Shown here: positions 24,238 through 56,274 of the stretch, one piece after another
Layout: every line of letters starts with the position of its first letter
Numbering within the stretch: position 1 is the stretch's first letter
NCBI GenBank assembly: GCA_020851795.1
Contig: JADZCA010000013.1
Span: forward strand, 7,428-71,427
Length of the DNA stretch: 64,000 nt
Reading direction: 5' to 3'
Source: Planctomycetota bacterium
GTDB lineage: Bacteria > Planctomycetota > PLA2 > JAEUHO01
Notes under the pieces: model-generated
What the model was told of the DNA's origin: nothing
Database searches by the model: none
The model's input: the letters and a program-made list of their open reading frames with translations, nothing else
Program-made: the position numbers and the translations under genes

Positions 24238-24278
24238 CAAAGCGCGCGTCGTCGGCGCGGCGGGACTACGCTGCTCGG

Positions 24279-25586: not shown

Positions 25587-25591
25587 CTCGC

Positions 25592-25722
25592 CCGCCCGGC
25601 GAATTCACGAGTCCACGAGGTCGGGGCGGCGGCTTGCGCCCGGGCCGAATCGGCGAGCCCCGACGAGGGCGTCACGTGCATTCGGCGCTCGACAGGCCTC
25701 GTCTTCCGTGAGCTCGGCACGC
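25592..25722. repeat. MITE/REP-like intergenic repeat, copy C (inverted orientation, both terminal inverted repeats present)
   Basis: cggcgaattcacgag ... ctcgtcttccgtgagctcggcacg. The internal core is the reverse complement of copies A and B. Confidence 0.5.
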
Positions 25723-25776
25723 GAGGACTCCCTCGCGGGAACGGGCCCCTCGGCGGCTCGCCACCGAGACGGGCTC

Positions 25777-27216: not shown

Positions 27217-27299
27217 CGCAGATCCTCCCCGGGGCCCTCATTCTCCCGCGCGCGGGCCGCCCGATCCCACGACGCACGACTGCGCCGGAGGGGGCCCCG

Positions 27300-27326
27300 G
27301 ACGGCGGCGTGCCCTGCGCCGCCGTC
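27300..27326 (-). terminator. hairpin overlapping the stop of the upstream gene
   Basis: gacggcggcg / tgccctg / cgccgccgtc: 10-bp perfect stem. Confidence 0.3.
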
Positions 27327-28506: not shown

Positions 28507-28507
28507 G

Positions 28508-35093: not shown

Positions 35094-37108
35094 GCGGCGT
35101 GCGCTCCGCGGCCGGAGAGCTCGGCCTGCGTGGCCGTCGAGAGGCGCCGTCGCGCGAGGTTGCCGAGCGCCGTCTCGGAAAGGAGCGCGACGCAGGCGAG
35201 CACGAGGAGCCAGCCCGTCAGGTCGCGCGGCGCGCCGCGCGACAGCGTCGCCTCGACGTCCTGCGGCGCCACGACCGTCGCGCCGGGCAGCCGCGCCTCC
35301 CACGCCGCGGGCGTGGCCCGGCGGCCCGTCGCCTCGGCGAGGTCGGCGTCCACCGAGAACGCCGCGTCGGCCCGCTCGAGGTCGTACAGCCCCGCGCGCA
35401 GCACCGGACGCGGTGCCGTGCCGTCGCCGGCCACGCACGCCGGGCGCTCGACCCCGCCGCGGGCGAGCAGCGGGAGGGTGCCGTGGAGCCACGCGAGGAA
35501 GGTGGGCCGCAGGGCGAAGGCGGTGGACGTCGGCTCGAGCGGGGTCGCGAGCAGGAGCGCGTGCGCCGGGCGCCCGCTCCCGCGCAGGAGCACCGGCCGG
35601 CCGCCCGCCTCCATCAACACGACCGCGTCCGCGCGCGTCGCCACCTCGACGGCGTCCTTGACGACGACGCCCTCGAGCCGCGCGCGTCCCTCCGAGGCGA
35701 GGCCGACGAGCGTCGGGTCGGCGGGCGCGACGACGGCGAGCGCGGCGGCCGGCGGCGGCTCGACCGCCCGCGGCGGCACCACGCGCGCCGGCAGCGCGTC
35801 GTCGAGCGGAGCCGGGACGGCGCGCGCGGCCCTGGCGGCACGCGGGCCCGCGACGACGAGCAGGCCGGCGCCCTCGGCGTGGCGGGCGAGCACGGCCGCC
35901 GCGACCGCGTCGGGGAGGTCGGGGGCGTCGTGGACGAGCACGAGGTCGGCGGTGCGCACGAGCGCGGCGTCCGCGTCGGAGGCGCGCACGCGCGTCACGT
36001 GGACGCCCGACACCGTGCCGTCGCCCGTCGGGTCGGCCGCGAGCGCGAGCAGCGCGCCACCCGACAAGGGCGAGGCCCCGCCCGCCTCCTCGAGCGCGCC
36101 GTCGAGGAGCAGGGCCTCGAGGCGCGGTCGCACGACGACGACGAGGTGGCGACGGTCGTCGGGGGCGAAGTCGTCGGCGGGGACCGAGGCGGTCAGGCCC
36201 GTCGGCCCGGCCACGGTCGGCGGGACGGAGAAGGTCGTCTCGCCGGTCCCCGCCGCGGACAGCGCGACGTCGGCGCGTCGCGGCGCGTCCGTGCCGAAGA
36301 CGAGCTCGACGGGGACGGAGGACGCCGCCCCGGCCCGGCGCTCGACGGCGACGGTGACCGCGACCGGGCGCCCGACGGTGACCGGCCCGCTGCCGACCGC
36401 GAGCCGGACGACCGCGACGTCGTTCCCGGCCGGTGGCGCCGTCGCCGCGACGACGACGACGCGCGTGCCCGGCGGCAGCGCACGGGCCGCCGCCTCGAGG
36501 TCGGGGTCGTCGAGCGCGGCGGCGTCGAGGTCGGTGGTGACGACGAGGCGACGGTCGGGCGAGGTGCCGCGCGCGAGCGCGGCCCCGGCCCGGCGCAGCG
36601 CGGCGGCGAGCGAACCGCGCGCGTCGGTGCGCTCGGCGGCCTCGAGGGCGCGCAGGAGCGCGCGCGCGTCCTGCGAGAGCCCCTCGGCCGGCGCCGCGGG
36701 CCCCGCGACGACCCGGTGCAGCGCCCCGCGGTCGCCCGGGCCCATGCGCTCGAGGACCGCGCGCGCCGCCGCGACGCCGCGCGACCACGCCCCGTCGGCC
36801 CCGCCGACGGCCGTCGAGGCGGAGTCGTCCACCACGACGACCGTGTCCGACGACGCGGGGCCCGCGGCGCCGCCGACGCTCGGGCGCGCGAGCGCCAGCA
36901 CCGCGAGCGCCACCGCGGCCGTGCGCAGCGCGAGCAGGACGAGCTCGTGCAGGCGGCGGCGGCGGGCGAGGTGGGGGTCCACCTTGCGCAGGAGCCGCAG
37001 CGACGGGAAGACGACGACCTTCGTGCGTCGCCGGAAGAGGAGGTGCACGAGCACCGGGAGCGCCGCGAGCGCGAGGAAGGGCAGCAGGGCGGGGTTGGCC
37101 ACGCCCAC
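35090..37108 (-). CDS. VWA-domain membrane protein (BatA-like, BatA N-terminal double-TM domain)
   Basis: ANPALLPFLALAALPVLVHLLFRRR N-terminus. MIDAS VVVVDDSAST. C-terminal TM. GTG candidates at 37102, 37108 and 37114 (37114 overlaps the DUF58 stop). Confidence 0.7.
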   Translation of the reverse strand: MGVANPALLPFLALAALPVLVHLLFRRRTKVVVFPSLRLLRKVDPHLARRRRLHELVLLALRTAAVALAVLALARPSVGGAAGPASSDTVVVVDDSASTAVGGADGAWSRGVAAARAVLERMGPGDRGALHRVVAGPAAPAEGLSQDARALLRALEAAERTDARGSLAAALRRAGAALARGTSPDRRLVVTTDLDAAALDDPDLEAAARALPPGTRVVVVAATAPPAGNDVAVVRLAVGSGPVTVGRPVAVTVAVERRAGAASSVPVELVFGTDAPRRADVALSAAGTGETTFSVPPTVAGPTGLTASVPADDFAPDDRRHLVVVVRPRLEALLLDGALEEAGGASPLSGGALLALAADPTGDGTVSGVHVTRVRASDADAALVRTADLVLVHDAPDLPDAVAAAVLARHAEGAGLLVVAGPRAARAARAVPAPLDDALPARVVPPRAVEPPPAAALAVVAPADPTLVGLASEGRARLEGVVVKDAVEVATRADAVVLMEAGGRPVLLRGSGRPAHALLLATPLEPTSTAFALRPTFLAWLHGTLPLLARGGVERPACVAGDGTAPRPVLRAGLYDLERADAAFSVDADLAEATGRRATPAAWEARLPGATVVAPQDVEATLSRGAPRDLTGWLLVLACVALLSETALGNLARRRLSTATQAELSGRGAHAA

Positions 37109-37110
37109 CG

Positions 37111-38012
37111 TCACCGTCCGATCCGCGTGCGCGCGTGGACGAAGCGGGCGAGCTCGGTCGCGAACGGCCGCGAGGTCGAGAGGACGCGGTGCTCGACGCA
37201 CGCCTCGGCCGTGACGCGCCCGAGGCCCCGCAGCCAGGCGGCGACGGCGTCACGGTAGGCGTCGCGGACGGTGCCGGCCTCGACGGGGAGGCGCTCGCCC
37301 GTCTCGGCGTCCTCGAGCTCGACGAGGCCGTGCCAGGGGAGGTCGGTCTCGGCGTCGTCGAGCACCTGCAGGACGGTGACGTCGTGGCGGTCGTGGCGCA
37401 GCCGGCGCAGCCCGTGCGCGACGTCGTCGGGGTCGTCGTGCAGGTCGGAGACCAGCACGACGACGCTGCGCCGGCGCAGCCGTGTCGCGACGGCGCGCAG
37501 CGCGTTGCCCACGCCCGTCGTCCCGTCGGGCTCGAAGGCCTCCAGCGTCTCGAGCGCCTCGCGCACCGCCGTCGGCGAGCCGCGGGCGGGGAGCACGCGG
37601 TCCACCCGGTCGCCGAAGACGACGAGGCCCGCCGCGTCGCGCTGGCGGTGGAGCAGGTAGACGAGCCCGCCGGCCAGCGAGCAGGCGTACGCCCACTTGG
37701 TGGGGCGGTCGTCGGCCCCGCGGAACGCCATCGACGCGCTGCGGTCCACGAGCACGAAGGCCTGGAGGTTGGTCTCGTCCTCGTACTGGCGCACGACGCG
37801 GCGGTCCGCGCGCGCGAGCACGCGGAAGTCGAGGAAGCGCACCGGGTCGCCGGGCACGTACTCGCGGTACTCGGCGAACTCCACGGACGCGCCCTTGTGG
37901 CGCGAGCGGTGCAGCCCGGCGATCCGCCCCTCGACGGGCCCGCGCGGCGACAGCACGAGGCCGTCGAGGGCCTCCTGCGTCGCGGGCGTCAGGTAGCGGA
38001 ACGCGCGGCCGC

Positions 38013-38016
<4 letters not shown>
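37111..38016 (-). CDS. DUF58-family protein (MoxR partner)
   Basis: VLVDRSASM-like motif and DUF58 topology. ATGA overlap with the MoxR stop. Confidence 0.7.
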
Positions 38017-39470
<1,454 letters not shown>

Positions 39471-39473
39471 GGG

Positions 39474-41018
39474 TCACCGGGTCATCGCGTAGAGAACGAC
39501 GTTCTCGCCGACGCGGATCGCGTCGGCGGGGGCGTAGCCGCGGGCGAGCGGGTGCTCGTCGCCCTGCCAGCCGCCGCCGAGGTCGAACGGGGAGAGGAGG
39601 ACGGCGACGCGACCGTCCACCTCGACGCCCTCGAGGTAGGGGGCCTCGAGGTCGGGGCGCTCGCGGCGGAGCGCGGGGGTGTAGGCGACGCGGTCGATGC
39701 GATGCAGCGACGACCACAGCGGGTGGCCCGGCGGCAGCGGCCGGGGCGTCGCCTGCGGCACGAGGCGGCGGATCTCGCGCCGCGCGTGCCCGGTGAACCA
39801 CGGCAGGCCGAGCGACGCGTCGAACAGCATCGTGCCGCCGCGCGCGAGGAAGGCCTGGATCGCGGCGACCGCGGCGTCGGAGAACGAGAAGGCGTCCACG
39901 CCGGCGACGTAGAGGAACGACAGCCCCGAGAGGTCGTCCTTGCCCGGGTCCACCGTGCGGCGGCGCAGCGTGACCTTGGCGTTGGTGCGCGCGGCGAGCG
40001 CCTTCAAGAGGTTGCCGGGGCCGCCGGGGTCGGTGTTCCACACGCCCTCGTGGCGCACCTGCGCGAGGACGAACTCGTCGGTCGCCGGCTTGCCGTCGTC
40101 CTCGCCGTAGAGTTCGGGCCGCGCGTGGCTGCGCCCGAGCGCGGCGTAGCCGAGCGCGTACGCGACGAGGTTGACGCCCAGCTCCTTGGCCGAGCGCGGG
40201 TCGTAGTAGGTCGCGCCTGCGATCAGCGACGGTTCGGCGTTGTCCCAGCCGCCGCCCATCCCGAACTTCGAGAGCACGGCGGCCACGCGGCAGCCGACGT
40301 AGAGCCCTTCGAGCACGGGACGGTCGGTGCCGGCGGCGGGGGGCAGCGTGGCCTTGACCGCGTCGGCGGCCATGTGGAACAGCGGGTGGTCGGGCGGGAG
40401 CACGCGCAGCGGCTCCTCGGGGAACAGCCGCCCGAGCAGCGCGCGCACCGATTCCACGAAGAACGGGCTGCCGGCGATCGCGTCGAACCACACCATCCCG
40501 CCCGCGAGCACGAAGCGGCGCAGCACCGCCTCCTGGTCGCCCGACAGCACGAGGCGCCGGCCGCCGGAGACGTAGAGCACCGGCGTGCGCAGCGGGTCGG
40601 GGTCGAAGGAGGAGAGGCGGACGGTGTCGGCGCGGTACTCCACGCCGAGGACGCGCCCCGACAGCTTGAGCAGCTGCTGCGCGTCGGCCGGGCACATGTT
40701 CCAGTCCTCGACGCGCACCGAGGTCCCGTCCTCGAACGCGAAGTCCGCCCCGGCGCCCCAGACGACCTTGCCGACGAGCAGCGGCGGCGCGGGCGGGCGC
40801 TTGCGCTCGGTGCGGCGCAGCGGGGTCGCGGGCAACGGGAGCGGCGGGAACGACTCGCCACCCTGGATGCGCTGCGGCGTCGCGACCTTGCCGCCGCCGA
40901 CGGGGCGCAGCCAGTCGTCCTCGCCGCCGGCCCGTGCCACGGTCGAGAGCAGCGCGAGCGCCGTCGCGGCGACCGCGGCGCGCAGGAACGGACGGCGCTC
41001 GGGCATGGGGCACCTCAT
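39474..41018 (-). CDS. secreted protein with two DUF4159-like (class-I glutamine-amidotransferase-like) domains
   Basis: Signal peptide. Two internally repeated halves (…VLAGGMVWFDAIAG…PPDHPLF / …LARGGTMLFDASLG…PPGHPLW). ATGA overlap with the upstream TPR gene. Confidence 0.5.
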   Translation of the reverse strand: MRCPMPERRPFLRAAVAATALALLSTVARAGGEDDWLRPVGGGKVATPQRIQGGESFPPLPLPATPLRRTERKRPPAPPLLVGKVVWGAGADFAFEDGTSVRVEDWNMCPADAQQLLKLSGRVLGVEYRADTVRLSSFDPDPLRTPVLYVSGGRRLVLSGDQEAVLRRFVLAGGMVWFDAIAGSPFFVESVRALLGRLFPEEPLRVLPPDHPLFHMAADAVKATLPPAAGTDRPVLEGLYVGCRVAAVLSKFGMGGGWDNAEPSLIAGATYYDPRSAKELGVNLVAYALGYAALGRSHARPELYGEDDGKPATDEFVLAQVRHEGVWNTDPGGPGNLLKALAARTNAKVTLRRRTVDPGKDDLSGLSFLYVAGVDAFSFSDAAVAAIQAFLARGGTMLFDASLGLPWFTGHARREIRRLVPQATPRPLPPGHPLWSSLHRIDRVAYTPALRRERPDLEAPYLEGVEVDGRVAVLLSPFDLGGGWQGDEHPLARGYAPADAIRVGENVVLYAMTR

Positions 41019-43138
41019 CGGGGCGGGGCGGGGGGGCGGGCGACCTCGGCGGCCTCCGGCGACCACGGGAACTCGGTGCGCAGCCGCGCGCGGGCGGCCT
41101 CCGCCCCCGCGGCGTCGCCCTCCGCGGCGCGGCTGCGCGCGAGCAGGAGCAGGGCCCGGGGCGTCGCCGCGCCGTCGGGCTCGACGGCGACCGCACGCTC
41201 GAGGAGCACCGTCGCGCGCCTCGCCTCCCCGACGCGCAGCGACGCGTCGGCGAGCAGCACGGCGCCCTCCGCGCGCAGCCGCTCGCGGGGGAAGTCGGCG
41301 AGGACGGCGCGCGCGGCCTCGATCGCGGCGCCCGCGTCGCCCGCCGCGAGCCACGCCTCGACGGCGTGCAGGCGGGCCCGACGCGACGCCTCGCGGGCGC
41401 GCGCGTCGCCGTCGCCGCGGTCGAGCACGCGCTCGAGCACGCGCGCCGCCTCCTCGGGGCGCCCGGTCGAGAGCAGGGCGTCGGCGCGCGCGAGCGCCGC
41501 GCGGCGGACCCCGTCCTCGTCGAGGTCGGCGGGGCGCAGGCGGTCGAGCGTGGCGAGCCCCGCCGTCGCGTCGCCGCGCTCGACCGCGTCCTGCGCGGCG
41601 GCGAGCGCCGCGCGCGCGGCCGCCGCGGGCGGCGCGTCGGGGGTCGTCGCCGCGAGCGCGAGCGCGCGCAGGCGGGCGTCGGGGTCGCGCGTCGCCGGGG
41701 CGTCGAAGAACGCGGCGAGCGTCAGGAAGACGTCCACCCTCGTCGCGCCGTGCAGGCCGTCGGCGCGCGCGAACGCGTCCTTCGCGACGGCGCGCACGAG
41801 CGCGTCGGACCCGAGCGTGTCGGCGGCCCGCAGCGCCGCGTCCACTTCGCCCGGCGCGAGCCCCGCGGCCGCGGCCTCCTCGAGCGCGGCGCTCCACGCG
41901 CGCTCGCTGCCCTGGGCGAACGGGACGAGCTGCGTCCACACGGGCTCCGAGGCGACGCGCTGCACGCCGTCGGAGGCGGGGCGCCGGCTCGACGTCACGC
42001 GCAGGCGCACCGGCCGCACGGCGCGGCCGACGTAGACGTGCTCGCCCGCCGCGCCCGTGCCGCCGCGCCCGTCCCCGAAGTCCCAGGTGCACGTCGCGTC
42101 GCGGGGGACGCCCACCGCCTCGAGGCGGACGCGCACGAGGTAGGCGCCGCCGACGTCGGCGTGCTCGACCGAGCGCCAGCGGAAGTCGGCCGGTGCGGGG
42201 CCCGTGGCGACCTCGACCGGCCCGGCCTCGGCGGGGACCGGCTGCACCCAGTCGGCGTCCCACAGCACGCGCCAGCGCGGCTCGTCGGTCTTGCGGATCG
42301 CGACGACGGCGGCCTGCGGCTGCCCGCCCGCGACGAAGTGGACGTACTCGAGCGGCGTCGCGCCCGCCTCGAGGGCCACGCGGGTGCGGAAGCGCCCGCG
42401 CTGCGCGGCGTGGGGGCCGCGCATGCGCGACCACAGCGGCACCTCCGCCTCCCGGACGCGGAGGATGGACGCGTCGCTCGACACGGTGCACAGCTCGTAC
42501 TCGCCCGCGGTCGGCACCCGGAAGAAGCCGCGGTAGGTCGCGACGTAGGTGCGGCTCGGGCCCGCGGGGTTCTGGCCGTCGAACACCTTCGGCCGCAGGA
42601 CGCGGCCCTCGACGTCGGTCGCCGTCTTCTCCGCGAGCGCGACCCCCTCGGGCGTGTCCACCGGGAACGGGTGCGGCCAGCGGCGCACCTCGCAGACGAG
42701 CCCGCCGTCGCGCGTCCACGCGGGCGGGCGGTCCTTGGGGTCCGCGCAGCCCCAGTAGGCGGCGTAGCGGGCCCCGAGGTCGCGCGCCTCGAAGAGGAGC
42801 GTGGCGACGTCGCCGGGGCCGACCGACAGCACCTCGACGCCCACCGGTCGGCCGTCGGGGCCCACGACGCGGAGGTCCGCCCCGTCCTTGCGCAGCGCGC
42901 CGTGCGTCGAGACCGTCGCCGACGCGGTGTGGGGCGCGAGCGGGCCCGCGGGCGAGAGCGTCAACGCGCAGCGGTGCGTCCACGCGCGGTCCCACCACGC
43001 GGGCCCCGCGGGGGCCGGCGCGTCTTGGGCCACCGCCGCCGCGCGCGGCGCGAGCAGCAGGGCGAGCGCGACGAGCGCCCCGGCGCACGCTCGGCCTCGA
43101 GGCCGCGGCGCACGGGGCAGGGCACTCGGCGGTCGCAC
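41015..43138 (-). CDS. secreted protein with C-terminal TPR-like repeats (BatC/BatE-like)
   Basis: GTG at 43138 followed by a signal peptide (RGRACAGALVALALLLAPRAAAVAQ). N-terminal beta-rich domain. C-terminal Ala-rich TPR-like helices. First gene of the operon. Confidence 0.5.
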   Translation of the reverse strand: MRPPSALPRAPRPRGRACAGALVALALLLAPRAAAVAQDAPAPAGPAWWDRAWTHRCALTLSPAGPLAPHTASATVSTHGALRKDGADLRVVGPDGRPVGVEVLSVGPGDVATLLFEARDLGARYAAYWGCADPKDRPPAWTRDGGLVCEVRRWPHPFPVDTPEGVALAEKTATDVEGRVLRPKVFDGQNPAGPSRTYVATYRGFFRVPTAGEYELCTVSSDASILRVREAEVPLWSRMRGPHAAQRGRFRTRVALEAGATPLEYVHFVAGGQPQAAVVAIRKTDEPRWRVLWDADWVQPVPAEAGPVEVATGPAPADFRWRSVEHADVGGAYLVRVRLEAVGVPRDATCTWDFGDGRGGTGAAGEHVYVGRAVRPVRLRVTSSRRPASDGVQRVASEPVWTQLVPFAQGSERAWSAALEEAAAAGLAPGEVDAALRAADTLGSDALVRAVAKDAFARADGLHGATRVDVFLTLAAFFDAPATRDPDARLRALALAATTPDAPPAAAARAALAAAQDAVERGDATAGLATLDRLRPADLDEDGVRRAALARADALLSTGRPEEAARVLERVLDRGDGDARAREASRRARLHAVEAWLAAGDAGAAIEAARAVLADFPRERLRAEGAVLLADASLRVGEARRATVLLERAVAVEPDGAATPRALLLLARSRAAEGDAAGAEAARARLRTEFPWSPEAAEVARPPAPPR

Positions 43139-43342: not shown

Positions 43343-45256
43343 GTGCGCGCGGACCGTCGCCTCCTCGCCGCGGGCGCCGTCGTCGCCGTCGCGGTCGCGA
43401 TCGCTTCCGCACCGCGTCGGGCCGACGCGGGCGACGCCGCGCCGCCCGTCGCCGCGGCGCGCTGCGCTCCGTGCCACGCGGCCGCGCACGCGGCGTGGGC
43501 GCCGTCGAACCATGCCCGCTCGACCCGCGGGCTGACGCCCGCCGACCTCGGGGTCGCCGACGGCGCCACGCTGCGGGTCGAGCACGACGGGCACGTCTCG
43601 ACGTTCTCGGCCGCACGCGGCGCGGTGACGCTCGAGACCGCCGGCCCCGACGGCAAGCCCGCGCGCTACGAGGTCCCGTGGGTCGTCGGGCCTCGACGCG
43701 TCGAGATGTTCGTGGGGCCGGTGCCCTCCGGCGCCGTGCAGGTGATGCCGGTGATGCGCGAGGTGCCCACGGGGCGTTGGTTCGACTGGACGCACCTCGT
43801 GTTCGGCGGGCCGCTGGTCGGCGGGCGCGCGGGCCCCGCCCCCGTCGTCGCGCCGGGCGACGAGACGTGGTGGACGGGGCCCGTGCGGTCCTTCGACGCT
43901 CGTTGCGCCCGCTGCCACGTCAGCGGGCGCGAGCCCGTCGCGCCGTCGCCCGACGGCACGGGCCCACGGTCGCGCTGGCGGGCGCTGGGCGTGGACTGCG
44001 AGGCGTGCCACGGCGACGGCGACGCCCACGTCGCGTTCTGGCGGCGGAGCCGGCCCGACCCGGCCGCGAAGGACCCGATCGTGCGCTGGCGCGACCTCGA
44101 CCGCGACGCGTCGCTGTCGGCGTGCCTCGCGTGCCACCTCGAGGGCGAGGTCGTCGCGCGCGGGATGGCGCCGGGCCGGGACGTGCTCGAGCACGTGGAC
44201 CCGACGCTGATCGACGACCCCGAGCGGCTCGACGCGCACGCGCGCCCGATGGAGCTGGTCTACGAGGGGCTCTCGCTCCTCTCGAGCCGCTGCGCGGAGC
44301 GCGGCGGCCTCACCTGCCTCGACTGCCACGCGTCGCACGGCAGCCCGCACGGCGCGCTGCTCGTCCGTCCCGTCGCCGGCGACGGCCTGTGCGCGCGGTG
44401 CCACCGCGCGGAGGCCGGCGCGCCCGCGGCCCACAGCCACCACGCGGCCGGCGGGACGGGGGCCCGCTGCGTCGCCTGCCACCTCCCGCCCGTCCCCGTC
44501 GAGCGCGGCCACGGCGTCGTCACCGACCACACGATCGGCGTGCCGCGCGTCCCGGCGCCGGGCGAGGTCGCGGCGCGCGACGCGTGCACCGGCTGCCACG
44601 AGGGGGGACGAGGGTTCCCCGCGGGCGCGCCGCCCGTCGTCCCGGACCGGCTGCGCGCGGCGTACGCCGCCTGGTGGCCGTCGGCCGCGACGCGGCGCGG
44701 GTGGCCCGACGCGTTCCTCGCGCAGCGACAGGGCGCGCCGCATGCGGCGGCCGCGCTGACCGACGTGCTCTACGACACCTCGGTCCCGCACGTCGTGCGC
44801 GCGTCGGCGGCCGCCGCACTCGGGCGGCTCGAAGCGACGCCGGAGGCCCCGCTCCTCGACGCCGTCGCCGACGAGGACCCGCTGGTGCGCGCGGCGGCCG
44901 CGAGCGCCCTCGCGCGGGTGCGCTCGCCGGCGGCCGACGCGGCGCTCACGGCCGCGCTCGCCGACGCGTCGCCGCTCGTGCGCGCTCGCGCCGCGAAGGC
45001 CGCGCTCGAGGGGTGGTCGCGCGTGTCCGGCGACGCCGCGCTGCGACGCGCGACGCTGCCGGTGCTGCGCGCGCAGGCCGACGCCGTGCCCGACGACGAC
45101 CTGCGGTGGTTTCGCCTCGGTGCGGCGTGCGAGCTCGACGGGGATTCCGCGGGGGCCGTCGACGCGTACGCGCGGCAGGTCGCGCTCGACCCCTTCGCCG
45201 GCGCGGTGCGGGAGCGCCTCGCGCGCCTGCGCGCGACGGCGTCGCCGCGTCGCTGA
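43343..45256 (+). CDS. octahaem c-type cytochrome fused to C-terminal HEAT/PBS-lyase repeats
   Basis: Signal peptide. Eight CxxCH motifs (CAPCH, CARCH, CEACH, CLACH, CLDCH, CARCH, CVACH, CTGCH). C-terminal DEDPLVRAAAASALARV-type HEAT repeats. GTG start at 43343. Confidence 0.7.
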   Translation: MRADRRLLAAGAVVAVAVAIASAPRRADAGDAAPPVAAARCAPCHAAAHAAWAPSNHARSTRGLTPADLGVADGATLRVEHDGHVSTFSAARGAVTLETAGPDGKPARYEVPWVVGPRRVEMFVGPVPSGAVQVMPVMREVPTGRWFDWTHLVFGGPLVGGRAGPAPVVAPGDETWWTGPVRSFDARCARCHVSGREPVAPSPDGTGPRSRWRALGVDCEACHGDGDAHVAFWRRSRPDPAAKDPIVRWRDLDRDASLSACLACHLEGEVVARGMAPGRDVLEHVDPTLIDDPERLDAHARPMELVYEGLSLLSSRCAERGGLTCLDCHASHGSPHGALLVRPVAGDGLCARCHRAEAGAPAAHSHHAAGGTGARCVACHLPPVPVERGHGVVTDHTIGVPRVPAPGEVAARDACTGCHEGGRGFPAGAPPVVPDRLRAAYAAWWPSAATRRGWPDAFLAQRQGAPHAAAALTDVLYDTSVPHVVRASAAAALGRLEATPEAPLLDAVADEDPLVRAAAASALARVRSPAADAALTAALADASPLVRARAAKAALEGWSRVSGDAALRRATLPVLRAQADAVPDDDLRWFRLGAACELDGDSAGAVDAYARQVALDPFAGAVRERLARLRATASPRR

Positions 45257-48702: not shown

Positions 48703-51177
48703 GTGCAGGACTTCGAGCTGCTGGGCCAGTTCTACCTCGGCAAGGCCTACGACCCCGTCGCCGGCGCGGTCTCCGACGACATCGTGCTCTACGACGCCAA
48801 GGACCTGACCACGCACGGCGTCATCGTGGGCATGACGGGCAGCGGCAAGACGGGGCTCGCGGTGTCGATCATCGAGGAGGCCGCCATCGACGGCGTGCCG
48901 GTGCTGGCGATCGACCCCAAGGGCGACCTCGGCAACCTCCTGCTCGCGTTCCCCGACCTCTCGCCCGCCGACTTCCGCCCGTGGGTGGACGAGCAGGAGG
49001 CCGCGCGCAAAGGGATGACGGCCGACGCCTACGCCGCCGAGACGGCGGCGACGTGGCGCAAGGGCCTCGCCGCGTGGGGGCAGGACCCCGCCCGCGTCGC
49101 GCGCTACCGCGACGCCGCGCGCGCGACGATCTACACGCCGGGCAGCACCGCCGGCGTGCCGCTGACCGTGCTCAAGTCCTTCGCCGCGCCGCCGCCCGCC
49201 GTGCGCGACGACGCGGAGGCGCTGCGCGAGCGCGTCGTCGCGACGACGTCGGGGCTGCTCGCGCTGCTCGGGCTCGACGCCGACCCCGTCCGCAGCCGCG
49301 AGCACATCCTCGTCGCGACGCTGCTCGAGGGCGCGTGGCGCGAGGGCCGCGACCTCGACGTCGCCGGGCTGCTGCGCGCGATCCAGCAGCCTCCCTTCGA
49401 CCGGCTCGGCGTGCTCGACCTCGAGTCGTTCTTCCCGGCGAAGGACCGCACCGCGCTCGCGATGGCGCTCAACGGCCTCGTCGCCTCGCCGGGCTTCTCG
49501 GCGTGGACGCAGGGCGAGCCGCTCGACGTCGGGAGGCTGCTCTGGACGCCCGAGGGCGCGCCGCGCGTCAGCGTCGTGTCGATCGCGCACCTCTCCGACG
49601 CGGAGCGGATGTTCTTCGTCACGGCGCTGCTCTCCGAGGTCGTGGCGTGGATGCGGGCGCAGTCGGGCACGTCGAGCCTGCGGGCGCTCCTCTACATGGA
49701 CGAGGTGTTCGGCTACTTCCCGCCGACCGCGAACCCGCCGTCGAAGGGCCCGATGCTGACCCTGCTCAAGCAGGCGCGCGCCTACGGGCTCGGCGTCCTG
49801 CTCGCGACGCAGAACCCGGTGGACCTCGACTACAAGGGGCTGGGCAACGCGGGGACCTGGTTCCTCGGGCGCCTGCAGACCGAGCGCGACAAGGCGCGCA
49901 TCGTGGACGGCCTCGAGGGCGCCTCGGCCGCGGCCGGCGCCTTCGACCGCGCCCGCCTCGAGGCGACGATCTCGGGCCTGAAGAACCGCGTGTTCCTCAT
50001 GGTGAACGCGCACGACGACGCGCCGACGCTGTTCCAGACGCGGTGGGCGCTCTCCTACCTGCGCGGGCCGCTGACGAAACCGCAGATCCAGGCGCTGACG
50101 GCGGCGCGACGCGACGCGGGGCCCGCCGCGGCGGCGCCGTCGGCCGTGCCCTACGGCGCGCGGCCGGCTCCGGCGGCGCCGACGGCCGCGGCGGGCGGCG
50201 GGGCGCCCGGCGCGGGGCCCGGGGCGACGGCGGTGCGGCCGGTGGTCCCGCCCGACGTCGTCGAGGTGTTCCTCCCGGCCGCGCCCGGCGGGGGCGGGCA
50301 CCGGCTCGAGTACCGCCCGGGCGTGCTCGCGAACGCGAAGCTGCACTACGTGGACGCCAAGGCGGGCGTGGACGTGTGGGAGGCGGTGGCGGTGCGGGCC
50401 CCGCTCCCCGACGAGACGGCGCTCGACCCGTGGGACGCCGCGGAGGTGCTGCGTGCGGCGCCGACGACGGCGCGCGCGCCGGACGCGGGCGCGACGTTCT
50501 CGGCGCTGCCGGGCTCGGCGACGCGCGCGAAGACCTACGCCGCGTGGCAGAAGGCGCTCGAGGAGTGGCTCTTCCGCACGCGGCCGCTGTCCGTGTACCG
50601 CTGCGCGGAGCTCAAGGAGGCCAGCCGGCCCGGCGAGACGGAAGGCGACTTCCGCGTGCGCCTCGGGCAGCTGCTGCGCGAGCGGCGGGACCGCGAGGTC
50701 GAAGCGCTCAAGCGCAAGTGGGAGCCGAAGGTGACCGCGCTGGCCGACCGCGTCCGCGCGGCCGAGGAGCGCGTGGCGCGCGAGCAGTCGCAGGCGTCGC
50801 AGCAGAAGCTGCAGACCACGCTCTCGTGGGGCGCGACGATCCTCGGCGCGATCTTCGGGCGCGGCAAGATCGCGAGCGCGGGCACGATCGGGCGCGCGAC
50901 GACGGCGGCGCGCGGGATCGGGCGGGCGTCGAAGGAGGCGGCCGACGTCACCCGGGCCGAGGAGGGCGCCGACGTGCTGCGCGCGCGGCTCGCCGAGCTG
51001 CAGAAGCAGGTCGAGGACGAGATCGCCGCGCTGCGCACGGCGACCGACCCCGGCTCGCTCGCGCTCGACGAGGTGCGCGTCGCGCCGCGCAAGGGCGACC
51101 TCTCCGTCGGCACCGTGGCGCTGCTCTGGACGCCGTGGCGCGTCCTCCCCGACGGCACCTCCGAGCCCGCCCGGTAA
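48703..51177 (+). CDS. HerA/DUF87-like P-loop ATPase with a long coiled-coil C-terminal extension
   Basis: GVIVGMTGSGKTGLAVSIIEEAAIDGVPVLAIDPKGDL (Walker A). YMDEVFGYFPP (Walker B-like). LLATQNPVDLD. 824 aa from GTG 48703. Confidence 0.6.
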   Translation: MQDFELLGQFYLGKAYDPVAGAVSDDIVLYDAKDLTTHGVIVGMTGSGKTGLAVSIIEEAAIDGVPVLAIDPKGDLGNLLLAFPDLSPADFRPWVDEQEAARKGMTADAYAAETAATWRKGLAAWGQDPARVARYRDAARATIYTPGSTAGVPLTVLKSFAAPPPAVRDDAEALRERVVATTSGLLALLGLDADPVRSREHILVATLLEGAWREGRDLDVAGLLRAIQQPPFDRLGVLDLESFFPAKDRTALAMALNGLVASPGFSAWTQGEPLDVGRLLWTPEGAPRVSVVSIAHLSDAERMFFVTALLSEVVAWMRAQSGTSSLRALLYMDEVFGYFPPTANPPSKGPMLTLLKQARAYGLGVLLATQNPVDLDYKGLGNAGTWFLGRLQTERDKARIVDGLEGASAAAGAFDRARLEATISGLKNRVFLMVNAHDDAPTLFQTRWALSYLRGPLTKPQIQALTAARRDAGPAAAAPSAVPYGARPAPAAPTAAAGGGAPGAGPGATAVRPVVPPDVVEVFLPAAPGGGGHRLEYRPGVLANAKLHYVDAKAGVDVWEAVAVRAPLPDETALDPWDAAEVLRAAPTTARAPDAGATFSALPGSATRAKTYAAWQKALEEWLFRTRPLSVYRCAELKEASRPGETEGDFRVRLGQLLRERRDREVEALKRKWEPKVTALADRVRAAEERVAREQSQASQQKLQTTLSWGATILGAIFGRGKIASAGTIGRATTAARGIGRASKEAADVTRAEEGADVLRARLAELQKQVEDEIAALRTATDPGSLALDEVRVAPRKGDLSVGTVALLWTPWRVLPDGTSEPAR

Positions 51178-51343
51178 CGGCGGGCGGGGGCGGTCTGCGG
51201 GGGGCGCCTGCGCGCGCCCGCCGGGAGGACGTCGGCGCCCGGTGGCGGCCCGCGTCGTGGGGGCGTCCGTGCCGGCCCTCGCCGTCCACGCGGGACGGGA
51301 CGCGGCGCGGGCGCTGCGCCGGAAACGGCGAGCGTCGGCCGGG

Positions 51344-51697
51344 TCAGCGGCGTGCGAGGACGGTGCGGACGGCGTCGAGGAAGGCGCGCGCGGTGCGGCC
51401 GTCGGCGGACGGGAGGTAGCCGCAGCGCAGCGCGCCGAGGACCCTGTCGAGCGACGCCTCGTCGGTCGCCTCGGCGAGCAGCCGCTCCACCTCGGCGTGC
51501 GCCGCCGCCACCTCGACCGGGCGCGCCTCGCGGGCGAAGGCGCGCACCGCGTCCTCGGGCGTCCCGCCGAAGGCGTCGAAGTCCTCGTTGACGTACGCCC
51601 CGAACAGCCGCGCGAGCTGCGGGAAGCGGCGGCGCAGCGCGGCCGGCGTGGGCGGGCGTCCGTCGCGGCCGGGCGGGCGAGGGCGGGTGGGGGTCAC
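51344..51697 (-). CDS. small cytoplasmic protein, immunity-protein-like (hypothesis)
   Basis: 117 aa. GTG at 51697 overlaps the upstream stop (GTGA). Acidic and helical, with no TM. Confidence 0.35.
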   Translation of the reverse strand: MTPTRPRPPGRDGRPPTPAALRRRFPQLARLFGAYVNEDFDAFGGTPEDAVRAFAREARPVEVAAAHAEVERLLAEATDEASLDRVLGALRCGYLPSADGRTARAFLDAVRTVLARR

Positions 51698-52284
51698 GGC
51701 AGGCTCACGTAGGCGGTGTGGACGCGGAACCCCTCGGGGAAGCGGTCGCTCGGCGCGAGGACCACGACCACGGTGCGCCCCGGCGACGTGCGGCCGGTCG
51801 CCACGCGGTAGACGGTGCCCGCCGGCTCGGGCGTCCGTCCCTCGAACGACTCGAGCGCCGTCGGCGACGACGCGAGCCACGCGGCCACGCGGTCGCGGCG
51901 GTCGTAGAGCACGCGGGCCACCGCGCGGTCCGCCCCCGCACGGTCGGGGAACGTCGAGACCTCGCGCTTGGCCTCCGTCGCCGCGCGCCGCGCGAGCTCC
52001 TCGGGGGTGCGCCCCACGTGGCGCTCGAGCGTGTGCGCGCCGCCGAGCCCCTCGTGCGCCGTCAACGAGCCGCCCGGGATCGCGTCCGCCGGCGCGGCGC
52101 TGCGGGGCGCGTACCTCGCGGCGGACGGTGTGCGCCCGGCGGGGCGCGACGGCGCGCCGGGCTCGCGTTCCCCCGACGGCGCGCCGGCGCCGCGCCCGGC
52201 CGACGTGGAGGTGTCGTCGAGCGGGAGCCGGTCCCGCAGCAGCCACATCGCCAGCCCGACGAGGGCGAGCGCGACGATCGGCAC
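51694..52284 (-). CDS. TM-anchored small protein with a toxin-like C-terminal domain (bacterial RNase A-like toxin fold suspected)
   Basis: N-terminal TM VPIVALALVGLAMWLL, a Pro/Ala/Ser-rich linker, then GGAHTLERHVGRTPEELARR…RVHTAYVSLP. His/Arg 11 residues apart and a C-terminal T-x-Y recall the His-Arg-Thr-Tyr catalytic set of RNase A-like CDI toxins. Start codon uncertain (GTG 52284 or ATG at MWLL). Confidence 0.35.
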   Translation of the reverse strand: MPIVALALVGLAMWLLRDRLPLDDTSTSAGRGAGAPSGEREPGAPSRPAGRTPSAARYAPRSAAPADAIPGGSLTAHEGLGGAHTLERHVGRTPEELARRAATEAKREVSTFPDRAGADRAVARVLYDRRDRVAAWLASSPTALESFEGRTPEPAGTVYRVATGRTSPGRTVVVVLAPSDRFPEGFRVHTAYVSLP

Positions 52285-52334
52285 CCATCGCGTGGCCGGG
52301 CGCGGTGACGCGCCGCCGGGGCCCGCGACCAGCG

Positions 52335-52745
52335 TCAGAGCAGCTTCCCGAGGTCGCCCAGCTTGCCCATGATCGACGTGAGCAGCTCCGGCGACAGCTT
52401 GGACCGCACGAAGCTGAACAGCATCGCCGCGAAGCCCTGCGCCTTGTCGGTGCCGATGCCGGCCTTCTGCAGCATCGCGCCCACGGTCGCGGCCTGGCCC
52501 GCGGACCCGCCGAGCACCTTGCCCGCCGCCGCCATCAGGCCGCCGAGCGCGCCGCCGCCGCCGGTGGGGGCCTTGCGCATCGCGTCCTCGACGCCGGGGA
52601 TCGCCGCCGCGACCTTGCCGAAGTCGGCGGCGCCGACCTTGTCCTTGAGCATCGCGAAGAGGCCGCCCGCGCCCGACTCGGCCGCGCCGGCCGAGATGCC
52701 GAGCTGTTTCGACGCCATCCCGATGAAGTCCGACAGTCCGGCCAT
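52335..52745 (-). CDS. DUF2780-family protein
   Basis: 136 aa. Gly/Ala-rich repeats (GAAESGAGGLFAMLKDKVGAADFGKVAAAIPG…) and C-terminal SPELLTSIMGKLGDLGKLL, characteristic of DUF2780. Confidence 0.55.
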   Translation of the reverse strand: MAGLSDFIGMASKQLGISAGAAESGAGGLFAMLKDKVGAADFGKVAAAIPGVEDAMRKAPTGGGGALGGLMAAAGKVLGGSAGQAATVGAMLQKAGIGTDKAQGFAAMLFSFVRSKLSPELLTSIMGKLGDLGKLL

Positions 52746-53092
52746 GGCGCTGCAACCCTCCCGCGGGAGCCAATCCCCGACCTTGGATGCTACACCCGAA
52801 CCGGTCGCGCCGAGCCCGGGAGCCGCCGAGAATCGTCGGCGGCGCCCACGCCCGGCGCGCCGCGGGGGCGCCCTCGTCCGCGGATTCCGGATCGCGGCGC
52901 CGACGCGCGCCCACGGCGGCGGGACGCGCCGCGCGAGGCCGCCGGTGGGTCCGCCAGCGCGCCCACCGGGGCGCGAGGTCCCGTGCGCCGCACCCGGAGC
53001 GAGACCGCGCCGTCCGCTCGGACGCGGCGTGGAGCGCGCGGGCGGACCCGGCGCGGGCGGCGGGACCGAGCGCCCGCGCCCTCGTGGTGGCG

Positions 53093-53422
53093 CTACTTGG
53101 CGGCGATCACCGCGTCGAGCTGCTTCTGGTAGTCGCCCTTGCCGCGCAGGCCGATGATGCGGCCCTTCTCGGCGCCGCCCTTGACGAGGACCACGGTGGG
53201 CAGGCTCGTGATGCCGAACTTCACGGCCGTCTGCTTGGCCTTGTCGGCGTCCACGTAGAGGAACTTCGCCTTGCCGGCGTAGCTCGGCGCGAGCGCCTCG
53301 AGGATCGGCTTGAGCGCCTTGCAGGGCCCGCACCACGTCGCACCGAAGTCGAGGAGCACCGGGACGTCGCTCTTGGCGACCTGGGCGTCGAAGCTCGTGT
53401 CGTCGATCTCGGGCAGGGCCAT
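53093..53422 (-). CDS. trxA: thioredoxin
   Basis: WCGPC active site. 109 aa. Confidence 0.9.
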   Translation of the reverse strand: MALPEIDDTSFDAQVAKSDVPVLLDFGATWCGPCKALKPILEALAPSYAGKAKFLYVDADKAKQTAVKFGITSLPTVVLVKGGAEKGRIIGLRGKGDYQKQLDAVIAAK

Positions 53423-53595
53423 GCGCGCGCTCCGAAGGAAGGGAGCGGCCCACTCTACCGTCGCCGGGGGCCAACCCCGCGCCGGGGTCCCCCCGGGTCG
53501 GTGGCCCCCGATCGGTGCCCGCCCGGGGGGCGCGCGTAGCCTCATCCGCCTTGCCCACGGACCTCGTCGGTGCGCGGGCTCCCTCGGAGACCTCC

Positions 53596-54522
53596 ATGCG
53601 TCGCGTGATCGCTCTTGCCGCCGCCACCGCTGCCCTTGCGTTCGCCGCCGTCCCCGTCCGCGCCGAAGGCGAGAAGACGTACTCGTTCCCCGAGCGCGAG
53701 ACGTGGAAGGTCGGCGACGTCGCGACGCACACCGAGACGTCGCACAAGGTCCAGCGTCAGCTCGTCAAGTCGCCCGACGGCACCGTGATGCAGGACCAGT
53801 CGGCCGAGGAGAACGTCGCCTACGAGGCCGTGCTCGCGTGTCGCGAGGTCAACCAGGCCGGCGACTACACGAAGGCCGTCGTGTTCTTCAAGTCGTGGTC
53901 GCGCACCGTCGGCGGCCAGAAGGACGAGTCGCTCGCGGGCATGCACGTCGAGCTCTCGGGCCCGCCGACCGGCCGCACGGTGCGGGTCCTCGCGGCCGAC
54001 GCGAAGGTCTCCCCCGAGGCCGCGTCGTGGCTCGACGAGGAGCTCGGCAAGGGCGCCCGTCGCGAGTCCGAGTCGGGCAAGGTGTTCCTGCCCGAGAACC
54101 CGGTCGCGGTCGGCGCGTCGTGGTCGCCCCCGTTCGCCGTGCTCGCGAAGGCCTTCGACGGCGGCGGCCTCCAGTTCGACGAGGCGAAGTCGAGCGCCAA
54201 GCTCACGCTGAAGGCGGTCGAGGACGGCGTCGCGACCCTCGACATCGACTTCCAGATGCAGACGAAGGGCCTCCCGGCCGGCCCCGAGCCGGTCGCGTGG
54301 TCCGAGGGCGGCGTGCTCTCGATCAAGGGCGTCGGGCGCAAGGCGATCGAGGCGGGCGACCACCGCAACGACCACACCCTCACGGTGACGTTCCAGGGCT
54401 CGGCCCCGGTGCAGGGCGGCCCGATCGTCACGATCTCCGTGACGCAGGAGGGCGGCTCGAAGACGGTCGCCGGCGGCGAGATGCCGGCCGTCCCGGGCGA
54501 GGACGACGCCGACCCGAAGTGA
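53596..54522 (+). CDS. hypothetical secreted protein
   Basis: Signal peptide MRRVIALAAATAALAFAAVPVRA. 308 aa, Lys/Glu-containing composition unlike the R/G-rich artefact frames. Confidence 0.55.
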   Translation: MRRVIALAAATAALAFAAVPVRAEGEKTYSFPERETWKVGDVATHTETSHKVQRQLVKSPDGTVMQDQSAEENVAYEAVLACREVNQAGDYTKAVVFFKSWSRTVGGQKDESLAGMHVELSGPPTGRTVRVLAADAKVSPEAASWLDEELGKGARRESESGKVFLPENPVAVGASWSPPFAVLAKAFDGGGLQFDEAKSSAKLTLKAVEDGVATLDIDFQMQTKGLPAGPEPVAWSEGGVLSIKGVGRKAIEAGDHRNDHTLTVTFQGSAPVQGGPIVTISVTQEGGSKTVAGGEMPAVPGEDDADPK

Positions 54523-55323: not shown

Positions 55324-56274
55324 ATGATCCGCCTCGGCCTCGACGAAGCCGGCTACGGCCCCCTGCTCGGCCCGCTCGTCGTCGGGATGGCCGCGCTGCG
55401 CGTCCCCGACGGCGGCGACGACGAGGACGTGCGCCGCCGCCTCGACGGGCTCGTGGCGCGCGCACGTGGCCGTCGGCGCAAGGGCGCGCTCCCGGTCGCG
55501 ATCGACGACAGCAAGGAGGTGCACGGGCGCTACGGCGTCGAGGGCCTCGCGCACGGCGTGGCGGCGGCCGCCGTCGCGGCGGGGCGCGCGGTCCCCACCG
55601 ACCTCGCCGACTGGCTCGAACGTTTCGGCGACCGCGGCCCCGACGCCTTCGGCGCCGACCCGTGGTTCGCCGAGCCCGAGCGCGCGCGGGTCCCGCCGTG
55701 GTCGCCGCCCGCGGGGCTGCGGGCCCAGTGGCTCCTGCGCGGCGTCGAGCCGCTCGGCGTCGTGGTGTCGCCGGTCACCCCCGCCGAGCTCAACGAGGCC
55801 TTCGACGCGCTCGACAACAAGGCGCGCGTGCTGTTCCTCGCGACGGCGGCACTGCTCGTGCGCGGCCTCGACGCCCATCCCGGCGAGGACGTCGAGGCGG
55901 TGCTCGACCGCGAGGGCGGGCGGCTCGACTACCTCGAGCCGTTGCGCGGCGTGTTCCCCTTCCACGACATCGAGCGCGAGGCCGCCCCCGCCGGCGAGGC
56001 GCGCTACCGCCTGACCGAGGGCGGGCGGCGCGTGCGGCTGCGCTTCGTGACCAAGGGCGACGGCGCCGACCTCGCCACGGGCCTCGCGAGCATGGCGGCC
56101 AAGCTCACCCGCGAGCTGTTCATGGACCGCCTCAACGCGTGGTTCCTCGCGCGCGCGCCCGGCGTGCGCCCGACGGCCGGCTACGTCGAGGACGGCCGCC
56201 GCTTCCTGCGCGACGTCGCCCCGGTGCTCGAGCGCGAGCGCGTGGACCTGCGTCGCCTCGTGCGCACGCGCTGA
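55324..56274 (+). CDS. ribonuclease HII-family protein (with C-terminal extension)
   Basis: GLDEAGYGPLLGPLVVG and DDSK motifs resemble the RNase HII DEAGRGPLxGPVV / DSK motifs. Confidence 0.5.
   Translation: MIRLGLDEAGYGPLLGPLVVGMAALRVPDGGDDEDVRRRLDGLVARARGRRRKGALPVAIDDSKEVHGRYGVEGLAHGVAAAAVAAGRAVPTDLADWLERFGDRGPDAFGADPWFAEPERARVPPWSPPAGLRAQWLLRGVEPLGVVVSPVTPAELNEAFDALDNKARVLFLATAALLVRGLDAHPGEDVEAVLDREGGRLDYLEPLRGVFPFHDIEREAAPAGEARYRLTEGGRRVRLRFVTKGDGADLATGLASMAAKLTRELFMDRLNAWFLARAPGVRPTAGYVEDGRRFLRDVAPVLERERVDLRRLVRTR

Follow-up and report, generated by a model that had tools for sequence, protein, structure and literature searches.

A 64-kb stretch of Planctomycetota DNA (contig JADZCA010000013.1; hereafter the window) was found to encode, between positions 51344 and 52745, a small ribonuclease (RNase) of the bacterial RNase A-like family and, directly after it, a protein of the CdiI_2 immunity family. 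It appears probable that this pair represents an RNase exported by the general secretory (Sec) pathway and tethered to the membrane, together with a translationally coupled cytoplasmic inhibitor, and that the pair is vertically inherited and serves in RNA degradation outside the cytoplasm. What was observed comprises the families, the predicted folds, the catalytic residues, the order and overlap of the genes and their synteny, and from these we infer the rest of the picture. The pair belongs to a run of three consecutive minus-strand genes (51344-52745) that opens with a DUF2780 gene, and all three had positive log-odds coding scores based on G+C at the third and second codon positions (GC3/GC2). 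Because the G+C content of the whole window is 76.9%, mechanical lists of its open reading frames (ORFs) are full of spurious frames. The original prediction had described the same three genes, and its coordinates, the 50-nt gap, the N-terminal hydrophobic helix, the low-complexity linker, the GTGA overlap and the convergent HerA-like gene were all recovered here (Table 1).

The Pfam profile search assigned the 196-aa protein to RNAse_A_bac (PF18431), with 72.3 bits, where the cut-off is 27, and an E-value of 7.5e-20. The match spanned profile positions 1-112 of 113 and residues 83-192, and it was the sole domain of the protein. When the protein was compared by sequence with all chains of the PDB, a single entry was matched, 5E3E chain B (E-value 7.3e-9). 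This entry is the CdiA-CT/CdiI complex of Yersinia kristensenii 33638, hereafter Ykris (Batot et al., 2017; PMC5435912), a toxin/immunity pair of the contact-dependent growth inhibition (CDI) type, to which the identity is only about 23%. An AlphaFold2 (AF2) model of the RNase had a predicted local distance difference test (pLDDT) score of 87.6, rising to 93-98 in the domain from about residue 61. Foldseek superposed this model on 5E3E_B with a template modelling (TM) score of 0.90 and a root-mean-square deviation (rmsd) of 1.7 A over 113 columns (E-value 3.6e-9), and no other PDB fold was close to the model of either the RNase or the immunity protein.

The active site points in the same direction. 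In the motifs HTLERHVGR (residues 84-92) and TAY (residues 190-192) and between them, His89, Arg100, Thr190 and Tyr192 aligned in HMMER with Ykris His175, Arg186, Thr276 and Tyr278, all four of which are required for the activity of CdiA-CT(Ykris) according to mutagenesis (Batot et al., 2017; PMC5435912); the Ykris numbering was verified against the mutagenic primers in that paper. All four residues were invariant among the 37 homologues obtained by protein search, which are 167-219 aa long and have PF18431 as their only domain. The original prediction had proposed a CDI toxin of the RNase A-like type from the His/Arg spacing and the terminal T-x-Y, and the residues that it pointed to proved to be the mutationally defined ones. 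None of the three proteins had a match over the cut-off in NCBIfam; the model for RNase A-like domain-containing lipoproteins (NF041883) gave 30.3 bits against a cut-off of 200, and the RNase contains no cysteine, hence no lipobox Cys. The databases already contain an identical RNase sequence, labelled a hypothetical protein, from a 'Planctomycetes bacterium' metagenome-assembled genome (MAG). On the profile and model evidence, the 196-aa protein is a member of the bacterial RNase A-like (CDI-toxin) family, with predicted ribonuclease activity.

It should be noted that conservation extends beyond the upstream boundary of PF18431, to the segment YAPxSAAPADAIPGGSLxAHEG at residues 60-82 (52074-52107, minus strand). 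This segment had a pLDDT above 93 and packed against the RNase domain in the model, and its IPGGxL.(A/H)HE part was also present in polymorphic-toxin relatives (L012, L014 and L078) and in Microcoleus. The true RNase domain thus seems to be about 20 residues longer than the PF18431 model.

The 117-aa product of the downstream gene, which had been placed in the classic position of an immunity protein, matched CdiI_2 (PF18593) with an E-value of 1.6e-19 and 70.9 bits (cut-off 26.7) over profile positions 1-89 of 91. Its only match by sequence among all PDB chains was the partner chain of the same complex, 5E3E chain A (E-value 7.7e-5), and its AF2 model (pLDDT 82) was all-helical and superposed on 5E3E_A with a TM score of 0.85 and an rmsd of 1.7 A. 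Some of the residues that contact the toxin were kept: Asp39 stands in the place of Ykris Asp21, which hydrogen-bonds the catalytic Thr, Asp41 in that of Glu23, and Cys92 in that of Cys75. Other contacts were changed, namely Ykris Tyr12, Cys16, Gln20, Ser76 and Tyr78 to Arg30, Ala34, Glu38, Gly93 and Leu95. By sequence and model, the protein is of the cognate immunity family of RNase A-like toxins, CdiI_2, and is predicted to inhibit the RNase. No hydrophobic, signal or transmembrane segment was present in it (Kyte-Doolittle maximum 0.55), so it should stay in the cytoplasm. Its earlier description as an acidic cytoplasmic protein therefore agrees with the lack of a hydrophobic segment, but not with the overall charge: the full-length protein has an isoelectric point (pI) of 9.95 (16 Asp and Glu against 19 Lys and Arg), and only the CdiI_2 part (residues 24-117) is mildly acidic, with a pI of 5.4. 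Residues 4-19 form an Arg/Pro-rich extension that was present in this lineage only and not in the immunity proteins P0039-P0041. A twin-arginine translocation (Tat) signal at 'LRRRF' was considered and rejected, since in the alignment these residues fall at the beginning of the CdiI_2 domain, with no hydrophobic stretch after them.

The stop codon of the RNase gene and the start codon of the inhibitor gene share the letters GTGA, which implies, as far as gene layout can tell, that translation of the inhibitor is coupled to that of the RNase. The same 4-nt overlap recurred in five further loci (L001, L002, L003, L084 and L085) and in the Microcoleus loci. In a scan of one genome per species that yielded 324 relatives, 83 loci were fetched, and a CdiI_2 gene directly followed the RNase gene in 82 of them; the exception (L011) is truncated there by the end of the locus.

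With regard to cellular location, residues 1-17 of the RNase were hydrophobic (17-residue Kyte-Doolittle maximum of 2.1 at residue 1) and formed a helix at residues 2-17 in the AF2 model. The linker at about residues 18-59 had a pLDDT of 50-62, no secondary structure, and a length and sequence that varied in the alignment. The N-termini of the 37 homologues carried on average 2.3 Lys or Arg followed by an uncharged hydrophobic stretch of 15-19 residues, and the net charge around this stretch was +1.7 on the N-terminal side against +0.1 on the C-terminal side. In several homologues the stretch was closed by VWA|Q-type sites, and lipobox-like motifs were found in three (P0034, P0035 and P0037). 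Because these N-termini read as export signals, an extracytoplasmic location is predicted for the family's RNase domain and proposed for the catalytic domain of the window protein.

In the relatives, the gene order around the pair reads FTHFS - acyltransferase - RNase HII-like - (HIT) - (hypothetical) - thioredoxin - (DUF2780) - RNase - CdiI_2 - HerA-like (convergent) - PMT_2 - TraB/GumN - MiaE. This order was found in L001, L002, L004-L006, L008, L010, L011, L084 and L085, always with the RNase/CdiI_2 pair in its slot, and altogether about 13 Planctomycetota assemblies had the pair at this syntenic place in the chromosome. The identity of the RNase to that of the window ran parallel to the identity of the neighbouring HerA-like protein and stayed within the range of the other neighbours: 62% for the RNase and 74% for HerA in both L004 and L005, 61% and about 65% in L001, 56% and 64% in L002, 56% and 54% in L008, and 50% and 54% in L010. 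Neither second copies of the RNase or CdiI_2 genes nor orphan cassettes were present in the 64-kb window; no CdiB/TpsB (Omp85), Rhs, type VI secretion system (T6SS) or type VII secretion system (T7SS) components were among the Pfam matches of its other called genes, and no mobile-element or defence-island signature was found around the pair in the window. A search for repeats at the locus returned GC-rich chance matches only and no flanking direct or inverted repeats of the mobile-element type. Polymorphic toxins, as defined by Zhang et al. (2012; PMC3482391), have a trafficking or repeat scaffold and swapped or orphan toxin/immunity types. No such scaffold was found in the window RNase, which has only the hydrophobic helix and the linker before its domain, and no replacement by unrelated toxin or immunity types occurred in the related Planctomycetota loci, where the slot held the same two families. 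Considering the synteny, the neighbour-like divergence, the single copies and the lack of secretion or mobile-element genes, the pair appears to be a chromosomal locus passed on vertically in a clade of high-G+C Planctomycetota, as opposed to a polymorphic cassette of the CDI, Rhs or T6SS kind.

Examination of the wider family revealed that PF18431 does occur on toxin scaffolds elsewhere: in CdiA with Fil_haemagg and PT-VENN (Photorhabdus, L057), with T7SS_signal and RHS (L071), with PT-HINT (L012) and in a WXG100-like protein (L058). The expectation that the same C-terminal domain would be appended to other N-terminal scaffolds was thus borne out for the family, but not the polymorphic cassette that it suggested for this locus, which is single-copy and syntenic and diverges as its neighbours do. 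In these respects the locus comes close to the housekeeping-type context that the original prediction had listed as evidence against a toxin; the similarity to a toxin fold was nonetheless found. Small forms with export signals were also common. They include the 173-aa lipoproteins of Bacillus, a 179-aa form in Microcoleus, and proteins with a lipobox or a transmembrane segment in Acidobacteriota and Thermoanaerobaculia. The loci of Microcoleus, Tychonema and Lyngbya (among L015-L081; for example, L046, 5839-6674) consist of this 179-aa RNase and an overlapping 99-aa CdiI_2 protein. Across 42 species-level genomes of the Microcoleus group, the median identity of the RNase was 88%, and the upstream flank was shared in 39 and the downstream flank in 37. 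By its sequences, this group adds a second lineage in which the pair is stable, syntenic and non-polymorphic.

Two further arrangements were seen among the fetched loci. Two Actinomycetota loci (L068, 6332-7029, and L072, 6408-7011) have two tandem CdiI_2 genes after the RNase toxin gene. Extra immunity genes of this sort are what a conflict system would be expected to have, whereas the clade of the window has only one. In another Planctomycetota MAG (L017, 5242-6757), the RNase domain ends a 396-aa ORF that is followed by CdiI_2; the only Pfam match of this ORF was PF18431, and a DPSGL motif in its N-terminus is reminiscent of the end of an Rhs core. This locus is possibly a toxin cassette of the Rhs type or an orphan one, again in Planctomycetota.

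On the basis of these results, the following course of events is proposed. Sec would insert or export the RNase, whose domain would be held outside the cytoplasm on a flexible Pro/Gly-rich tether at the cytoplasmic membrane; in some relatives, the enzyme would be released or lipid-anchored instead. By analogy with CdiA-CT(Ykris), it would cleave RNA without a metal ion, through a 2',3'-cyclic phosphate intermediate, with His89 as the general base, Arg100 stabilizing the transition state, and Thr190 and Tyr192 at a leaving-group or base-stacking position. The CdiI_2 inhibitor, coupled through GTGA, would cap the active site, where Asp39, the equivalent of Ykris Asp21, would bond the catalytic Thr. 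The inhibitor could thus shield the RNA of the producer from any enzyme already folded ahead of its export, in the manner of barstar with barnase. The role of the enzyme is most likely the degradation of periplasmic or extracellular RNA, for example, in nutrient scavenging, which would match the proposal made for the RNase A-like lipoproteins of the Bacillus cereus group (Batot et al., 2017); this role is the least certain part of the picture.

Several points weigh against this reading, the first of which concerns topology. Export and orientation are deduced from sequence features alone, and from the annotated GTG start the window protein opens directly with its hydrophobic helix: there is no positively charged n-region, and the residues RDR follow the helix. 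Because of this arrangement, the positive-inside rule, taken alone, would favour a domain that faces the cytoplasm. Such an orientation would suit an intracellular toxin-antitoxin (TA) or abortive-infection-like module, in which the RNase is held by an N-out/C-in anchor and freed on the loss of a labile inhibitor. The order of toxin and antidote, tightly coupled by the 4-nt overlap, would fit such a module, as would the adjoining HerA-like ATPase with its weak matches in PADLOC. However, the N-termini of the family are classic export signals, with Lys or Arg first and some lipoboxes or cleavage-type sites, and the charged segment appears to have been lost or obscured in the window. The ATG of the closest relatives (L004 and L005, MPAFDRRRW...) is not conserved there, and the ancestral ATG and RRRW n-region are missing or mutated. 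The equivalent Lys/Arg segment, RPATRW, is encoded in frame (region 52282-52345), but it precedes GTG 52284, which is the first canonical start; a start at the in-frame CTG 52336-52338, which overlaps the DUF2780 stop codon as CTGA, would restore it. The start of the window RNase is therefore uncertain: it may be GTG 52284 with a bare helix or CTG 52336-52338, or the MAG sequence may be imperfect. In addition, PADLOC gave no match for the RNase or the DUF2780 protein and only one marginal match for the immunity protein, to the uncharacterised Unk_06 (E-value 0.0031); the adjacency of HerA is part of clade-wide synteny and is not seen beside the pair in other phyla, and the locus lacks a mobile-element or defence-island signature. 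Taken together, an intracellular module of this kind seems highly improbable.

The other points concern divergence and role. Divergence is a little quicker in the immunity protein than in the RNase (identity to the window proteins of 45-66% against 50-62%), as would be expected if specificity evolves. All relatives are MAGs or metagenome contigs, a sample without strain-level depth. The scavenging role is proposed by analogy only, and a conserved, non-polymorphic exported RNase can still be a weapon, as PMC13189344 describes for ribocin, which acts on other organisms with no known secretion system. These points bear on an antagonistic toxin/immunity pair, in which the Sec-exported RNase would be released (by signal peptidase, proteolysis of the linker or vesicles) or passed on by membrane contact, killing competitors or eukaryotic grazers, and the immunity protein would protect siblings. 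CdiA, Rhs, PT-HINT and T7SS toxins are the proteins in which this domain family is best known, the RNase is always accompanied by a cognate immunity gene, and the VWA|Q-type sites of some family members are compatible with release. The lipoprotein toxins of Myxococcus (SitA), moreover, are delivered by outer-membrane exchange. Nevertheless, no delivery machinery or trafficking domain was found in the RNase or among the genes of the window, the helix of the window protein has no small-x-small cleavage site, and a naked RNase would have no evident route into the cytoplasm of a target. It also counts against antagonism that about 13 assemblies have the same family at one locus, where it diverges as its neighbours do, and that no orphan cassettes or duplicated immunity genes were seen. 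We therefore regard antagonism as unlikely, although it is the strongest competitor of the exported, tethered RNase proposed above.

The DUF2780 gene, whose stop codon (TGA, 52335-52337) is followed after exactly 50 nt by the GTG of the RNase gene, had been counted as part of a three-gene module. Its protein matched PF11075 with an E-value of 5.8e-11 (43.2 bits against a cut-off of 27.5). A functional partnership, for example, as chaperone, adaptor or regulator, would be in keeping with the shared strand and short distance, with the CTGA overlap that arises if the RNase starts at CTG 52336-52338, and with the presence of DUF2780 upstream of the pair in six related loci (the window, L004, L005, L006, L084 and L085). 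However, DUF2780 was missing from the same slot in five syntenic loci that keep the pair (L001, L002, L008, L010 and L011), its distance to the RNase gene varied from about 12 to about 230 nt, and it was beside the pair in none of the fetched loci of other phyla. Distant DUF2780 genes (P0047 and P0048) lay in unrelated neighbourhoods with no RNase pair nearby. The protein had no signal peptide, its matches in the PDB were marginal (E-value 0.005 to the Chlamydia CT622 protein), and a literature search on DUF2780 found nothing. A true three-gene module is thus quite improbable, and its distribution marks DUF2780 as a lineage-specific neighbour outside the conserved module, though its gene may be co-transcribed with the pair. 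A scan for sigma-70 promoters over 51100-53700 gave none, and a scan for intrinsic terminators over the same region gave one site, inside the DUF2780 gene and on the wrong strand, which was no more than in shuffled sequences. An Rfam search over 51000-53700 at E-values up to 1 returned zero matches. A G+C-rich hairpin, GCCCGCC-CGGTAAC-GGCGGGC (51165-51186), lies across the stop codon of the HerA-like gene, between the convergent genes, and its sequence suggests that it may be a terminator without a T-run.

Table 1. Features of the RNase/CdiI_2 locus and its immediate neighbours in the 64-kb window
Feature	Position	Strand	Length	Basis or remark
DUF2780 gene	52335..52745	-	136 aa	PF11075 match; ATG start, GGGAGGG before ATG
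RNase A-like ribonuclease gene	51694..52284	-	196 aa	PF18431; GTG start at 52284, stop codon 51694-51696
RNase residues 1-17, hydrophobic helix	52234..52284	-		Hydropathy and helix 2-17 in model; read as signal anchor or export signal
RNase residues 18-59, linker	52108..52233	-		Low-complexity Pro/Gly/Ala/Ser/Arg; low pLDDT, variable in alignment
RNase residues 60-196, folded domain	51697..52107	-		AF2 confidence and PF18431
Catalytic codons	His89 52018-52020; Arg100 51985-51987; Thr190 51715-51717; Tyr192 51709-51711	-		Read in sequence
GTGA overlap, RNase stop/immunity start	51694..51697	-		Read in sequence
CdiI_2-family inhibitor (immunity) gene	51344..51697	-	117 aa	PF18593
HerA-like gene	48703-51177	+	824 aa	Convergent; 166 nt from immunity stop

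The original prediction had also pointed to the HerA-like gene, but no link to the pair could be found beyond gene order in the clade, throughout which the two are convergent. As a functional partner, it was rejected, since it co-occurs with the pair only within this synteny and not in other phyla. Its PADLOC matches were weak and were limited to the mad8 and HerA models. The protein itself is a HerA/FtsK-like P-loop ATPase with profile matches only around Walker A and in one later stretch; its C-terminal half, from about residue 410, had no family match. Another neighbour throughout the clade, a 316-aa protein (55324-56274, plus strand; 66-74% identity), matched RNase HII over its first 22 residues only; it could be an RNase H-like protein that has diverged or been repurposed.

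Some features elsewhere in the window were also observed. Seven well-scoring coding regions at 21835-35093 (800, 456, 479, 393, 1087, 405 and 726 aa) had no Pfam match at E-values up to 1e-4. Directly downstream of this run is a BatA/VWA - DUF58 - MoxR(AAA_3) - DUF4159 cluster (35090-41066), in which a MoxR-type AAA_3 ATPase (38013-39470, minus strand) has an N-terminal FHA/YscD-like domain, an unusual fusion. At 43625-45256 (plus strand), a multi-haem cytochrome c with paired CXXCH motifs (cytochrome c7/c554-like) is fused to HEAT repeats. A stand-alone protein of 1355 aa resembling non-ribosomal peptide synthetases (NRPS) is encoded at 11284-15351 (plus strand), with AMP-binding and PP-binding domains and a C-terminal hexapeptide-repeat transferase region, and a small SET-domain ORF (10787-11344) lies ahead of it.

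The families, the fold, the catalytic residues and the gene arrangement have all been described before, and the result amounts in the main to a correct annotation; it is not a discovery. What it adds is that a CDI-toxin/immunity domain pair also exists, in Planctomycetota and likewise in Microcoleus, as a stable, clade-conserved chromosomal unit with a stand-alone enzyme that carries an export signal, so that automatic 'toxin' labels could mislead. The pair is also a tractable test case for housekeeping or scavenging roles of RNase A-fold enzymes and for how an exported RNase stays harmless before export. As a tentative and broader idea, which we hold to be possible but far from established, the exported RNase A enzymes with CdiI_2 partners in the Planctomycetota clade, Microcoleus and the B. 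cereus group might form a distinct, vertically inherited physiological class, separate from polymorphic toxins, in which a membrane-tethered enzyme digests periplasmic or surface RNA for the acquisition of nucleotides or phosphate, or for 2',3'-cyclic nucleotides. If so, domains would have been exchanged between 'domestic' forms of the bacterial RNase A fold and those used in warfare.

The window pair can be compared with several known systems. It shares with the Ykris CdiA-CT/CdiI pair (5E3E) the two families, the predicted folds, the catalytic His, Arg, Thr and Tyr, the downstream immunity gene and some contact residues. However, the Ykris toxin is the tip of a CdiA protein of about 3000 aa with filamentous haemagglutinin repeats and a VENN motif, whereas the window RNase has 196 aa, with one helix and a linker before the domain; CDI systems have an adjacent cdiB, and the window locus has no CdiB gene and is syntenic and non-polymorphic. 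Ribocin (RbcN, PA14_21120) of Pseudomonas aeruginosa, a signal-peptide protein with an RNase A fold that cleaves host ribosomes according to PMC13189344, resembles the window RNase in its small size, its RNase A-like fold nearest to 5E3E, its His...Thr-x-Tyr residues and the lack of a known dedicated secretion system. As described there, it differs in having 15% identity to CdiA-CT(Ykris) and no annotated domains, where the window RNase is a clear member of PF18431; its target is helix 69 of the eukaryotic 25S/28S rRNA, and the passages of that paper considered here make no mention of a cognate bacterial immunity gene.

Like the window RNase, the lipoproteins of the B. cereus/anthracis group are small and stand-alone, combine an export signal, a linker and PF18431, are followed by CdiI_2 and are conserved in their clade, with little diversification. 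These lipoprotein RNases and their adjacent immunity genes were already noted by Batot et al. (2017; PMC5435912), who argued from anchoring and low diversity for RNA scavenging and not competition. The Bacillus forms (173 aa in L073, L076 and L079) have a short linker, a lipobox Cys and a Gram-positive envelope; the window RNase comes from another phylum and has no Cys, a transmembrane-type helix and a longer Pro/Gly-rich linker. The pair of Microcoleus and related Oscillatoriales shares with the window pair a hydrophobic export signal, a linker with IPGGGL.HE, PF18431, the 4-nt overlap with CdiI_2 and a syntenic locus; it differs in phylum and neighbourhood, in its shorter linker and in the sequence of its RNase, which has about 35% identity to the window protein. 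Finally, barnase of Bacillus amyloliquefaciens is a secreted RNase that acts through a 2',3'-cyclic phosphate, and its intracellular inhibitor barstar caps the active site before export. The two systems differ in that their families and folds have no relation (barnase is of the RNase N1/T1 type), in that barnase is released and not tethered, and in that the barnase and barstar genes do not overlap. By analogy, the window pair would follow the same logic, that of an exported RNase kept in check by a dedicated intracellular inhibitor.

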